Of a stretch of 64,000 bases of DNA, positions 30,602 through 53,714 are shown piece after piece. The number at the start of each line of letters is the position of its first letter. The stretch's first letter is position 1. Source of the stretch: Thermodesulfobacteriota bacterium (GTDB taxonomy: Bacteria; Desulfobacterota_D; UBA1144; Nemesobacterales; Mycalebacteriaceae); contig OZ242184.1 of NCBI GenBank assembly GCA_965205855.1, positions 1 to 64,000 of the forward strand, read 5' to 3'. Under the pieces are notes generated by a model, which saw only the letters and a program-made list of their open reading frames with translations, was not told where the DNA came from and searched no databases. The translations under genes were made by a program, and so were the position numbers.

Positions 30602-30668
30602 GCACTTACTCACAAGTACCCGCTTGTCGGGTCTTTGATAAATGCAAAATTCTGCTTGCAGAGGAATA
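30602..30668 (+). ncRNA. Structured leader element, copy A (3'-truncated)
   Basis: GCACTTACTCACA...ACCCGCTTGTCGGGTCT...TAAAT...TCTGCTTGCAGAG GAATA, nearly identical to the 5' half of copy C; TTGACA at 30565. Confidence 0.6.
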
Positions 30669-30685
30669 GTTTAGAGGACGTTATC

Positions 30686-31168
30686 ATGAACGAAATCAAA
30701 CCAATCGCCCTGTGCTTGGCTTTATGCCTTTTGCTTACCTCGTGTCTCGCAACACCCTATCAAAAATTGGGATTTAGCGGTGGGTTTACCGAGACACAAC
30801 TTGCGCCCGATATTTTCCGTGTGAGATTTCAGGGAAACGCATTCACTTCAGGAGACCGCGCCCAAGAGTTTACTCTGTTAAGAGTATCGGAATTATGTTT
30901 TGATAATGGCTTTGCCCATTTCACCATTGGTGATGAGAGCAATCAAGTAGTTCGGCAGACGATTCAAACCGCTCCCGCAACTTCCCGCACAAGAAGTTCA
31001 AGTTATTCAAGCACAACAACCTATGAGCCTGCAAAGTTTCATAATTTCTTCAGACCGAACAGTTATATGCTGGTGCGTTGTTTCAAACAAAAGCCAAGCG
31101 ACAGATATACTTTTGATGCGGCCTTTCTAATAAGAAGTCTCAAGACCAAATACAAAATCAAGAATTAG
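30686..31168 (+). CDS. Lipoprotein, resembles the CC0125/CC1285-type family
   Basis: Lipobox LTSC followed by ATPYQK..GGFTETQL...FRVRFQGNAFTS...LLRVSEL; GAGGA RBS. Confidence 0.75.
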   Translation: MNEIKPIALCLALCLLLTSCLATPYQKLGFSGGFTETQLAPDIFRVRFQGNAFTSGDRAQEFTLLRVSELCFDNGFAHFTIGDESNQVVRQTIQTAPATSRTRSSSYSSTTTYEPAKFHNFFRPNSYMLVRCFKQKPSDRYTFDAAFLIRSLKTKYKIKN

Positions 31169-31308
31169 GCAAATTTGTAATGTTCTTGATATAAGGCAAT
31201 ACTTTCGGGGCTCGCTCCGCAAAGTATTTTTTCGCTTATCTGAGAAGCCAGGCTGTATTAAAAAACTTACGAAAATCTGGCAGATATTTGACAGAATACA
31301 GTCGCACT

Positions 31309-31896
31309 TCAAACAATCTCCCCCCACAACTCCCCAACCTTCTCCCGCAACACTTTCAAATTCTCCGAATTATCAATAGTAAAATCATAATCGGGATTAC
31401 GTCCCGCTTGCGACTTCAACCTTTTCCGCGCTTTCTCATCATCAAGCCCGTCTCTTTTCGCCATTCTTTCAATCTTTTTCTCATCGCTTGCGTCAACCAG
31501 AACAAGCGCGTCCACAATTTTACCCAAAACCCCGCCGCGCGAAAGCAAAGCCGCCTCTATCACAACCGCTTTTGCTCCCTCACTTTCCGCCTTTCTGACG
31601 CGAAATACTATCTCGTCCCGTATCTCAGGATGAGTTATGCCCTCAAGGATTTTTCTTTTTCCTTCGTCCGAAAAAACGGTTTCTCCAAGTTTCGCCCTGT
31701 CTATTTTCCCCTCGGAATCAAGCACGCCGCTACCGAACCGCTCAACTATCCGCTCAAAAGCGGGCTTTCCGGGAATGGTAACAAAACGCGAAACCTCGTC
31801 CGCATCTATCAACTTCGCGCCGAGTTTGGCAAACATCCCGGCAACCGTGGACTTGCCCGAACACACATTGCCGCAAAGCCCTATTACTATTGCCAC
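31309..31896 (-). CDS. coaE: Dephospho-CoA kinase
   Basis: IGLCGNVCSGKSTV, IDAD, LEGITHPEI. Confidence 0.93.
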   Translation of the reverse strand: MAIVIGLCGNVCSGKSTVAGMFAKLGAKLIDADEVSRFVTIPGKPAFERIVERFGSGVLDSEGKIDRAKLGETVFSDEGKRKILEGITHPEIRDEIVFRVRKAESEGAKAVVIEAALLSRGGVLGKIVDALVLVDASDEKKIERMAKRDGLDDEKARKRLKSQAGRNPDYDFTIDNSENLKVLREKVGELWGEIV

Positions 31897-51429: not shown

Positions 51430-51441
51430 TTCAATACGGCT

Positions 51442-53448
51442 CTATTGAGAATCCGTGCCTTGAACGGAATCTCTGAGAATTTCCGCGACATCTTTTACCT
51501 GTATGTCTTCCGATTTGCCCTTCAATTTCGCCGCATCCTCAAACATTGTGTTGCAAAAATAGCAGGCAGTGGCAAGGGTGTCCGGTTCCAACTGCTGAGC
51601 TTCATCAAACCTGTTCCAGTTGACTCTCGGCGCGTCTTCCTCCATCCATATCTTTCCACCACCGGCTCCGCAACAGAAACTGTTGCGCTTTGAGCGTTTC
51701 ATTTCAACAAGATCTATTCCGGATATGGCTTTCAATATCTCTCTGGGAGAGTCGTAGATTTGGTTGTATCTGCCTATGTAGCAGGAGTCATGGTATGTGA
51801 TTTTTTCGGAAACCTTGCCGTTCGGGGTGAGTTTGCTCTGTTTTACGAGTTCAAGCAGAAAATCCGTGTGGTGAACAACCTCATACTCACCGCCGAATTG
51901 CGGATACTCGTTCTTTATGGTGTTGAAGCAGTGCGGGCAGTTGGTGAGTATTTTTTTAACCTTCAAATCGTTCATCGTTTCAACATTTTGAGAGGCAAGT
52001 TCCTGATAAAGCGCTTCCTCGCCGAGCCTTCTTGCCGGGTCCCCGCTACAGGTTTCCGAAGGGCCCATAACCGCAAAGTCCACGCCCGCACTGACAAGGA
52101 GATCCACAACCGCTTTTGAAACATTCTGCCCGCGAGGGTCAAATGCGCCGAAACATCCCATCCAGTACACAACATCAACGGGCTCGGCACTCTCAAGGTC
52201 TTTTCCGAGAATACGGATGCCTTCAATGTCAGACAGCCAGGTTGCCCTTTCGGAGTTGTCGAAACCCCACGGGTTACCGTGGCTTTGAAGTTTCTGCAAG
52301 GTTCTTGTCGCAGTGCCGGGCGGTTTGCCGTCAAGGGTCAGGTATTTGCGCATTTCCACAATTTTGCCCATTTGGTCTATAAACAGAGGACATTGCTCAA
52401 CACAGGCGTTGCAGGTTGTGCAGGCCCAAAGCTCTTCGGGAGTTATCCACTCCGCGGAAGCAAGGTTTGCGCCTTCTCCGGCGGCAAGCCTGCCATCGGC
52501 AATCTCCTTGCCCTCACTTGAAATATAGTGCCTGAGTTTCACAACCACATCGCGCGGGGAAAGAACTTTCTCCGTGTTCCATGCCGGGCAGTTATCCGTG
52601 CATCTGCCACACTCAGTGCATGTGTAGGAGTCCATAAGGTCTTTCCAGCTAAAATCCTCTATTTTACTCGCCCCGAAGTGTTCTATGTCGTCCGGTATGT
52701 TCTCAAAATCTATCTTTTCAATCACGCCGCGCGGTTTTAGGTTCTGGAAGAAAACATTGAGAGCCGCGGTAAAAACGTGGCTGTGTTTTGAGTATGGCAG
52801 ATAGTTAAGAAATCCTAGGAGTATCAAGATATGAAACCACCAGAAAAACTCACGCCAAAAGACCTGACCCCCAACCGTCATTGTCGCGAAAAGCCCGGCG
52901 AAAAGACTTGAGACGGGAAGAAATTCCTCAGGAGCATCACCAAGTGAGATTCTTGCTCCGGTAAAGAGAAAAGCCGTCATCACAAGGCCGAAAATAAGCC
53001 CCAGTACAACAACTGCATCAGGCCCGTTCACCTCTCTTTTTTTGCCGAAAGTCAGCCGATTTGTGACACCCATGCACAGGGCGACAACAACAAGTGCCTG
53101 AGTTATGTCCAAAACAAGTTCGTAGTAGTCATGACTTATGCCGGAAATGAGTTTGAATCCGGTTTCGGGGAAGAAAAGCCCAGTCATGAAAACCTCAAAA
53201 GTTCCTATGGAGATAATAAGAAATCCCCAGAAAATCATAAAGTGCTCAATTCCGGCGAATGTGTAGTTCTGCCAGAGACGCCGCTGTCCGAAAACATAGA
53301 TAAAAACGCGTTTTATCCTCTCGCCGATTTGGTCAAAGCGGTTGTCCTCTTTTTTTCCAAGCCGCAGAAGGCGAATCAGGTTGTAGATGTTGTAAAAGAA
53401 AAAGCCGAAAGAGACGGCAAGAAGAACTGTCATTATAAGCGGCTTCAT
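51442..53448 (-). CDS. Membrane-bound Fe-S oxidoreductase (HdrD/FadF-like: TM domain, 2x[4Fe-4S], CCG domains)
   Basis: CTECGRCTDNCP, CTTCNACVEQCP, YHDSC, CCGAGGG. Confidence 0.9.
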   Translation of the reverse strand: MKPLIMTVLLAVSFGFFFYNIYNLIRLLRLGKKEDNRFDQIGERIKRVFIYVFGQRRLWQNYTFAGIEHFMIFWGFLIISIGTFEVFMTGLFFPETGFKLISGISHDYYELVLDITQALVVVALCMGVTNRLTFGKKREVNGPDAVVVLGLIFGLVMTAFLFTGARISLGDAPEEFLPVSSLFAGLFATMTVGGQVFWREFFWWFHILILLGFLNYLPYSKHSHVFTAALNVFFQNLKPRGVIEKIDFENIPDDIEHFGASKIEDFSWKDLMDSYTCTECGRCTDNCPAWNTEKVLSPRDVVVKLRHYISSEGKEIADGRLAAGEGANLASAEWITPEELWACTTCNACVEQCPLFIDQMGKIVEMRKYLTLDGKPPGTATRTLQKLQSHGNPWGFDNSERATWLSDIEGIRILGKDLESAEPVDVVYWMGCFGAFDPRGQNVSKAVVDLLVSAGVDFAVMGPSETCSGDPARRLGEEALYQELASQNVETMNDLKVKKILTNCPHCFNTIKNEYPQFGGEYEVVHHTDFLLELVKQSKLTPNGKVSEKITYHDSCYIGRYNQIYDSPREILKAISGIDLVEMKRSKRNSFCCGAGGGKIWMEEDAPRVNWNRFDEAQQLEPDTLATACYFCNTMFEDAAKLKGKSEDIQVKDVAEILRDSVQGTDSQ

Positions 53449-53571
53449 AGTCTTTTCTCCATTAATAGGCGCGGGGTCGCACTAGAAACTGAAAGACTAT
53501 ACTAAATAGGCACGGAAAAAGGTCAAGAAGCGGAAAGATGCTGAAGTGTTCGCACGGTTTGTTTTATAATG

Positions 53572-53714
53572 GCCTTGTTCACTACTCAACAGGAAACCCT
53601 TTGTCGGGTCTCCTGCTAAATAAAAGAATCGATACGGCGTGGATTAATTACCCGCGCTGGGAAATAAGCGGGAACTTCTTGACATCTGTTGAGTAGTGAA
53701 CAAGGCTTGGCACC
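53572..53714 (+). ncRNA. Structured leader element, copy D
   Basis: Perfect 21-bp inverted repeat 53572-53592 / 53686-53706, core ACCCTTTGTCGGGTCTCCTGCTAAATA, tail AAGGCTTGGCACC; TATAAT at 53565. Confidence 0.75.

Follow-up and report, generated by a model that had tools for sequence, protein, structure and literature searches.

A strongly covarying structured 5′ leader RNA in a Thermodesulfobacteriota bacterium and its occurrence upstream of exported-protein genes in several phyla

We analysed the first 64,000 nucleotides (nt) of contig OZ242184.1 (assembly GCA_965205855.1) from a Thermodesulfobacteriota bacterium, and this whole stretch is called the window in the following. Dispersed among housekeeping genes, the window encodes three full copies (B, C, and D) and one truncated copy (A) of an element of 120-150 nt that we describe here as a structured 5′ leader RNA. 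A previous reading from the sequence alone had proposed four copies of such a leader, and these were recovered at 30602-30668 (+), 37813-37952 (−), 40197-40307 (+), and 53572-53714 (+). The motif that they share (ACCCNNTTGTCGGGTCT) was matched four times in the window at two or fewer mismatches, against 0.06 matches expected, and none of 100 shuffled sequences reached four. The source genome consists of one 1.40-Mb contig with 49.7% G+C. A covariance model (R1), for which four copies of equal length were combined with a structure written by hand, detected five copies in it, among them two further full ones (E and F, at 350376-350498 and 652478-652601) but not the truncated copy A. Compared with shuffled sequences, the folds of the window copies had z-scores of −5.79 (B), −4.45 (C), −8.72 (D), and −0.93 (A). 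Copy A folds poorly because it is cut off after P3b and has no partner strand for P1.

The element starts with a terminal helix (P1) of 17-23 base pairs (bp), the sequence of which differs from copy to copy. P1 closes a three-way junction whose other two arms are P2 (ACCCG/CGGGU), a hairpin that is short and conserved, and the hairpin P3/P3b, in which an A-rich internal loop (AAUAnAAnA opposite rAAUAA) is conserved. The inner stem that the sequence-only reading had described next to this A-rich loop (CCUGCU/RGCGGG in copies B and D, CUGAU/AUCAG in copy C) is present. Directly after the 3′ strand of P1 follows a conserved 3′ tail (CAAGRCCCGRCRCC), which was absent from that earlier description. 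In minimum-energy folds the tail pairs with variable downstream sequence to form a fourth hairpin, P4, which is predicted for 76 of 92 distinct tails and in which the two R positions of the tail pair as G-C, A-U or G-U. Junction, internal loop, and tail are nearly invariant across phyla. The element occurs in two length variants, a short one of about 120 nt (as in copy C) and a long one of about 145 nt in which the P3 arm is extended (as in copies B and D), the latter comprising nearly all copies from other phyla. The P3 internal loop shows what we take to be a likeness to the UAA/GAN motif. K-turn, hammerhead core, and retron non-coding RNA were each considered and dismissed by eye.

Copy B is a long variant on the minus strand (37804-37952; 44.4 bits with R1 and 78.9 bits with the model R2), with P1a at 37935-37952, P2 at 37918-37933, P3 at 37855-37916, J3/1 at 37844-37854, P1b at 37826-37843, and the tail at 37813-37826. 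Its P1 could be read directly as GUCCACAUUGAACGAAGG pairing with CCUUCGUUUGGUGUGGAC, which amounts to 18 bp including the three G-U pairs noted before. The promoter (37959-37988, −) comprises a −35 box TTGACT (37983-37988) and a −10 box TATAAT (37959-37964), followed by six nucleotides and P1. Behind the copy lies an open reading frame (ORF) of 211 amino acids (aa) with a signal-peptide-like N-terminus and no Pfam family (37140-37775, −). The short variant is represented by copy C (40197-40317, +; 66.1 bits with R1), with P1a at 40197-40213, P2 at 40214-40228, P3 at 40231-40269 (P3b 40246-40259), J3/1 at 40270-40277, P1b at 40278-40295, the tail at 40295-40307, and P4 at 40303-40315. It is preceded by a promoter (40161-40187, +) with a −35 box TTGACA (40161-40166) and a −10-like TATATT (40182-40187), and followed by a 122-aa ORF (40338-40706, +) with a lipobox-like VVTSC and a Shine-Dalgarno site GAGGAGG within 40323-40340. 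Copy D, again a long variant (53571-53730, +; 45 bits with R1, 71.8 bits with R2), has P1a at 53571-53592 (model start 53577), P2 at 53596-53609, P3 at 53612-53672, J3/1 at 53673-53685, P1b at 53686-53706, the tail at 53701-53714, P4 at 53707-53730, and a −10 box TATAAT at 53565-53570 (+). Truncated copy A (30602-30668, +) has P1a at 30602-30617, P2 at 30618-30632, the 5′ strand of P3 at 30635-30639, and P3b at 30650-30663, and is devoid of the 3′ strand of P3, J3/1, P1b, tail, and P4. A −35-like TTGACA is located at 30565-30570 (+), and the 160-aa ORF behind copy A (30686-31168, +) starts with a lipoprotein-signal-like N-terminus (MNEIKPIALCLALCLLLTSC) and showed no Pfam family.

Pairing was assessed in an alignment of 101 copies from the collected loci that was made with R1, to which the counts in this paragraph refer; additional copies from other phyla (loci L127-L156) stand outside of it. 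Standard pairs filled 95.7% of all pair cells, compared to 68.1% in shuffled alignments (none of 500 shuffles reached the observed value) and 31-46% with slid partners, whereby the figures lean towards structure and the shuffle tests overstate significance because the copies were fitted to the model when they were aligned and share a common descent. An earlier alignment of 80 copies was also put through the pair-count test. Changes on both sides occurred in 28 of 31 modelled pairs, all 19 pairs of P1 covaried, and one pair of P3 was CG in 47 copies and UA in 40. The covariation of P1 is also visible by eye in the listed P1 sequences. Within P1 we counted 168 G-U against 13 A-C cells, and thus pairing is kept on the sense strand only, which indicates that RNA is acting rather than a DNA palindrome. 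The sequence-only reading had argued the same from the G-U pairs of copy B and had proposed a conserved structured 5′ leader, which the pair counts support. The element is hence confirmed as a real, strongly covarying structured 5′ leader RNA, and it has one feature in common with riboswitches, namely a conserved, covarying structured domain in the 5′ untranslated region (UTR) in the same orientation as the downstream gene. Concerning the kind of element, the earlier interpretation was largely right, while its novelty is qualified by a distant, sub-threshold relation to sRNA-Xcc1.

In 100 copies the upstream region shows the consensus TTga, a spacer, and tg.TAtAaT, the −10 box occupying −13 to −8 relative to the first G of P1 and being followed by C(−1)G(+1). 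The fixed short distance of a sigma70-type −10 box that had been claimed for the window copies is therefore a feature of the whole family. From this promoter geometry, transcription probably starts at the first paired G of P1. In copy D no space is left between the −10 box and the longest possible P1, so that the family rule puts the predicted start at about 53577, inside the P1 drawn by the sequence-only reading.

The orientation of the element towards downstream genes is not random. A Shine-Dalgarno site and a same-strand ORF of at least 60 aa within 70 nt were found for 67 of 101 copies, and between P4 and the Shine-Dalgarno site or start codon there is a spacer of 10-30 nt. Out of these 67 ORFs, 65 begin with a hydrophobic, signal-like N-terminal segment and 33 carry a lipobox-like motif. 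The downstream proteins are very diverse, with an all-against-all BLAST of 82 of them yielding mostly singletons. Pfam searches on 20 downstream proteins identified OMP_b-brl in four and, once each, CsgG, RTX, TbpB_B_D, M48 with PDZ, M10, S8 subtilase, YadA head, DUF2085, and N6_N4_Mtase with HNH; the other eight of these 20 had no Pfam family. Judged by these features, the regulon appears to consist mainly of exported proteins such as lipoproteins, beta-barrel outer-membrane proteins, and adhesin-like proteins as well as protease genes, with a few DNA methyltransferases. The latter were found behind the leader in the source genome (copy D), in a sister species, and in gammaproteobacterial metagenome-assembled genomes (MAGs). 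Behind copy D a three-frame translation revealed a frameshifted remnant of a methyltransferase gene (53740-54500, +; N-terminus MFKNQTIWTGDNLPIMRGFEDNCIDLVYLDP), and intact relatives are present behind the same leader, of which locus L016 encodes N6_N4_Mtase with HNH and locus L010 falls into the same blastp cluster. The copy D remnant contains frameshifts and stops, the frame changing after about 33 codons and again later on. In three gammaproteobacterial MAGs (L083, L087, and L121) the leader stands before an ORF resembling the methyltransferase N-terminus, which ends after 56 aa in L083, and in L087 and L121 other genes follow this ORF, one of which in L121 has an NPPF methyltransferase motif. 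These surroundings may represent a defence-island context.

None of the Rfam families reached its gathering score on the copies, and scans of 30400-54000 and 37700-40400 at E≤10 did not match the copies either. Within the window, Rfam matched nothing at gathering score except two tRNA genes (56112-56182, −; 61890-61961, +). To that extent the element is undescribed, as the sequence-only reading had put it, but copies E (30.5 bits) and F (30.3 bits) as well as relatives (31.1-39.7 bits) gave matches in smaller searches to sRNA-Xcc1 (RF02221) that range from 30 to 40 bits with E-values of 3e-4 to 0.04, below the gathering score of 53, and share hairpin 1 and the two strands of the closing helix with that family. 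Six long-variant loci from other phyla showed no match to RF02221 at E≤1. Rfam types RF02221 as 'Gene; sRNA'. In the literature, sRNA-Xcc1 is described as an 88-nt small RNA (sRNA) that Northern blotting and end mapping defined in Xanthomonas (PMC2996969), as an RNA that lies upstream of symE on integron cassettes subject to horizontal transfer (bioRxiv 10.1101/2025.06.18.660453), and as a multi-copy RNA in Xylella (PMC12189769).

In the alignment to RF02221, the 3′ strand of P2 (GUCGGGUCU) takes the position of the 5′ strand of the Xcc1 closing stem and the tail that of its 3′ strand, and P3/P3b with the A-rich loop corresponds to hairpin 1 of Xcc1 with high posterior probability. Both families thus have in common hairpin 1 with its internal loop (AAUACAAuACCC / GGGGAAUAA) and the strands GgCcGGggG (in the leader, the 3′ strand of P2) and CccCCgGcC-aCC (in the leader, the tail). 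They also share a multi-copy, patchy distribution, a position about 40 nt upstream of an ORF, and a segment 3′ of hairpin 1 that is complementary to the Shine-Dalgarno region of this ORF. Our own model scores true RF02221 members weakly (14-31 bits), hairpin 1 being the part that R2 recognizes. The leader family differs in possessing a 5′ extension (P1a and P2a) and the 3′ strand of P4, and through these added strands the anti-Shine-Dalgarno segment becomes part of P1, the closing-stem 5′ strand part of P2, and the tail part of P4. True sRNA-Xcc1 members have no P1 but instead a local hairpin 2, which is missing from the leader family, where the respective region aligns with non-canonical marks and large insertions and is equivalent to J3/1 and P1b. 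The start predicted from promoter geometry in the leader family lies 25-30 nt upstream of the closing stem, whereas the Xcc1 RNA spans about 87 nt from the closing stem, and true sRNA-Xcc1 precedes genes of mobile elements (SymE-like ORFs) while the leader family precedes exported proteins. In the leader family the strands of the closing stem are 95.9% complementary with weak covariation, and each of them also has another partner (P2a and the 3′ strand of P4, respectively). By these comparisons the leader core is a distant, sub-threshold relative of a little-understood RNA family.

Among 151 sampled gammaproteobacterial genomes, a tally that includes two unpublished genomes whose loci were not used, RF02221 was found in 13 (nine above the cut-off) and our own model matched the seed genome only. 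True RF02221 members show a covarying closing stem, a local hairpin 2, and an ORF about 40 nt downstream, and when read by eye (loci L168-L187) the loop of hairpin 2 was complementary to the Shine-Dalgarno site of the downstream ORF in at least 10 of 14. This suggests that sRNA-Xcc1, which is catalogued as a trans-acting sRNA, might itself be a cis-acting translational leader. As far as our searches of the literature on sponge-symbiont RNA motifs, Dadabacteria, and sRNA-Xcc1 show, the leader architecture, the gene association, the habitat-tied spread across phyla, and the cis-regulatory reading are not in print, although supplementary files may contain lists of motifs.

The element is not confined to the source lineage. 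In its own phylum 35 of 120 genomes carry it, with a patchy distribution by family (f1 5/5, f8 26/37, f3 2/5, f2 1/33, f7 0/15, f9 0/19), and within the same order R1 matched 33 of 101 genomes. A wider scan with the exact motif pattern, using one genome per species, retrieved 44 stretches, of which 43 were confirmed by R1 or R2 (all except L085). According to record titles, the confirmed hosts belong to Thermodesulfobacteriota / 'Candidatus Dadabacteria', Gammaproteobacteria, Alphaproteobacteria, Acidobacteriota, Latescibacterota, and Longimicrobiales (Gemmatimonadota), the gammaproteobacterial hosts including Ca. Poriferihabitaceae, Ca. Spongiihabitans (order Arenicellales), and Thiotrichales. 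Many of these genomes are chromosome-scale assemblies, five of which contain 14, 9, 2, 8, and 1 copies, and the G+C content of the element follows that of its host from 0.44 to 0.67. Carriers from several phyla bear sponge-derived names that mark them as sponge symbionts, and in the literature searched Poriferihabitaceae and Spongiihabitans appear in sponge-holobiont papers only. No copy was found by the model in 150 other genomes that were sampled evenly across the class to which one carrier belongs. Metagenome contigs provided nine stretches with the motif pattern, seven of them confirmed by R2, while viral contigs provided none and one copy used as BLAST query had no match in a plasmid collection. 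Two alphaproteobacterial MAGs contain near-identical elements, including the usually variable P1 (L109:2288-2436 and L089:4869-5017); the likeness covers roughly the stretch between the −10 box and the tail, and neither the flanks nor the downstream genes are related to each other. Near-identical elements between unrelated flanks suggest that the module moves or is copied as a unit. In another pair (L123:4745-4895, Terriglobia; L125:199-349, Caldilineaceae, on a 3.3-kb contig) the element and a CsgG-like downstream gene are both very similar. This resemblance may reflect a recent transfer or a binning error of L125, and Chloroflexota were therefore not counted as a host phylum.

We propose that the leader acts as a cis-acting translational gate and assign this account as a whole a probability of roughly 0.6. 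The leader would be transcribed from its own sigma70-type promoter, starting at the first G of P1. With P1a and P1b paired, the initiation region would be free and the gene translated (ON fold, with P1, P2, P3, and P4 formed). Where P1 does not form, J3/1 and P1b would pair with the Shine-Dalgarno site and AUG and block translation, the OFF fold then consisting of a closing stem, P3, and the anti-ribosome-binding-site strand on the initiation region. The conserved core (P2, junction, P3, and tail), which is homologous to the sRNA-Xcc1 core, is the likely sensor of a ligand or protein by which one fold would be favoured over the other. This core may act via an alternative helix, equivalent to the sRNA-Xcc1 closing stem, in which the P2 3′ strand pairs with the tail. 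Since the tail follows P1 after two nucleotides, the topology suggests that an Xcc1-type closing stem is incompatible with a P1 of 17-23 bp. Of this account, the structure, its strand, the promoter geometry, the association with genes, the complementarity to the initiation region, and the distribution are borne out by the data, and the transcription start, the switching, and the sensor are inferred.

Complementarity to the initiation region is what points to such a gate. The duplex of J3/1 and P1b with the initiation region of the same copy had a mean energy of −11.55 kcal/mol compared to −9.65 kcal/mol with those of unrelated copies (Wilcoxon p 0.009), and the own target ranked in the best 5% for 16 of 67 copies, against 3 of 67 for P1a as a control. 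Relative to shuffles, the mean z of J3/1 and P1b was −1.02, with 24% of copies below −2. Taken singly, P1b, P1a, and J3/1 showed weak copy-specific pairing with the Shine-Dalgarno site, the signal being clear for the combined segment only. In copy B the complementarity is near-perfect over 17 nt across Shine-Dalgarno site and AUG: the initiation region (AACGGAGGUUUCAAAUG; 37773-37789, −) faces J3/1 and P1b (CAUUUCAAACCUUCGUU) with a duplex energy of −20.5 kcal/mol. When P1a was held unpaired, J3/1-P1b folded onto the Shine-Dalgarno site and AUG in 10 of 10 examples. Like translational riboswitches with three-part expression platforms, the element combines a conserved junction core, covarying helices, a 5′ UTR position, and a strand (P1b) that could pair either with its 5′ partner or with the ribosome-binding site. 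It departs from typical riboswitch aptamers in that its P1 is far longer and in that its regulon names no metabolic pathway.

Several observations weigh against the gate, in addition to the lean of the pair counts mentioned above. In each of the 10 examples the energy favoured the ON fold over the OFF fold, with a margin of 0.6 to 13.4 kcal/mol, and the ON fold would also be the first to form during transcription, so that switching would need an extra factor. Only about a quarter of copies (the 16 of 67) show clear copy-specific complementarity, much of the remainder being generic anti-Shine-Dalgarno pairing (J3/1 alone has a mean z of −1.13), and the pairing test for P1b only was weak (p 0.09). 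The alternative helix of P2b with the tail is paired in 95.9% of cells against 94.7% in shuffles, with 7 double-change cells where 1.3 were expected. Finally, the gene set implies no ligand and includes cytoplasmic methyltransferases. As to candidate signals, cyclic di-GMP (c-di-GMP) was considered and is excluded in the source genome, since this genome (a single contig, 98% complete) showed no match to GGDEF (PF00990) while controls were matched in eight genomes. The source genome does have a diadenylate cyclase and RelA/SpoT, so that cyclic di-AMP and ppGpp are conceivable signals, but nothing supports either of them.

A leader with the same fold could also do its work without any switch, if the paired 5′ end shielded the mRNA from 5′-end-dependent decay or if P1 were an RNase III processing site, the core being a scaffold or a general RNA chaperone site. 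The 5′ stem-loop of ompA in E. coli protects its mRNA from 5′-end-dependent decay, and the element resembles such stabilisers and RNase III-processed leaders in placing a 5′-terminal paired stem and long double-stranded helix before envelope genes. A predicted start right at the first paired G of P1, a P1 of double-stranded-RNA length, the ON fold as thermodynamic ground state in all ten examples, and downstream envelope proteins, which are often highly expressed, would all be in line with a constitutive role. A mere stabiliser, however, needs no conserved junction, internal loop, and tail, and leaders of the ompA or RNase III type come without a multi-helix core conserved across phyla and without a built-in anti-ribosome-binding-site strand. 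The copy-specific complementarity between P1b and the initiation region and the homology to the P1-less sRNA-Xcc1 would likewise go unexplained, and we regard a purely constitutive leader as unlikely. It is clearly improbable that the element is a free-standing, trans-acting sRNA whose position upstream of genes is incidental. The resemblance of its core to RF02221 and the mapped 88-nt RNA of Xanthomonas might be taken to indicate this, but a U-run stands behind only 5 of 80 P4 hairpins, so that the element is not a terminator, and 67 of the 101 copies have a start codon no more than 70 nt downstream. Moreover, the variable P1b matches the initiation region of its own copy, and a P1 that is specific to each copy offers no common seed for common targets. 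The scarcity of U-runs also speaks against attenuation of transcription, for which P4 or an alternative hairpin would have to act as a terminator before the gene. The leader does hold four mutually complementary segments (P2a, P2b, tail, and the 3′ strand of P4), reminiscent of the 1:2 / 2:3 / 3:4 scheme, and copy F has UUUU after P4; the alternative pairing, however, covers the Shine-Dalgarno site and AUG instead, and we give attenuation very little chance.

An equally slight chance is left for an element acting at the DNA level, in which P1 would represent the inverted repeats of a miniature inverted-repeat transposable element (MITE), of an invertible promoter (inverton) or of an integron attC site. 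The multi-copy, patchy, and cross-phylum occurrence and the near-identical elements in L109 and L089 with their different flanks would be expected of a mobile DNA element, surface proteins together with DNA methyltransferases resemble lists of phase-variable loci, and sRNA-Xcc1 is reported in integron cassettes in the preprint cited above. With about 100-150 bp, inverted ends, multiple copies upstream of genes, and hairpins in mRNA, the element is similar to the Correia-type MITEs of Neisseria. In these, however, the ends are conserved and the interior less so, whereas the arms of the leader vary even within one genome, with compensatory and G-U changes, around a conserved interior, the reverse of what is seen in transposase, recombinase, and attC sites. 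Mismatches in inverted repeats of invertons or MITEs would be strand-symmetric, and the excess of G-U over A-C in P1 is not. The promoter is located outside of the repeats, the element ends in 5′-GYU...RAC-3′, unlike attC with 5′-...AAC / GTT...-3′, and the window copies lie among housekeeping genes. With its conserved centre, variable ends, and housekeeping surroundings the element does not look like an attC site, although no search for intI was made.

Going beyond the translational gate, it is conceivable, yet doubtful at present, that the leader constitutes a new habitat-specific, riboswitch-like sensor class that has spread horizontally among unrelated sponge bacteria and switches on surface and secreted proteins and some DNA-modification genes upon a signal shared by host or community. 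The same sensor core would then be present in sRNA-Xcc1, which would also be a cis-acting translational switch. If true, one RNA module would control cell-surface and secretome genes in symbionts of at least five phyla with a common host habitat, this would be one of few instances in which a regulatory RNA has passed between phyla inside a single ecological community, and it would provide a handle on the proteins that symbionts display to the sponge host. sRNA-Xcc1, which is listed as a trans-acting sRNA from plant pathogens and from integron cassettes, would then belong to a larger family of leaders that act in cis by masking the ribosome-binding site. With strong covariation, two length variants, and more than 150 natural sequences, the family is suited for structure determination and ligand screening.

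Truncated copy A retains P1a, P2, and the 5′ half of P3 and then continues directly into a Shine-Dalgarno site, the anti-ribosome-binding-site strand being gone. Under the gate model, the gene behind this copy would be constitutively translatable. Just upstream of the copy B promoter ends a 413-aa gene of the sigma-70 family with regions 2, 3, and 4 (38044-39285, −).

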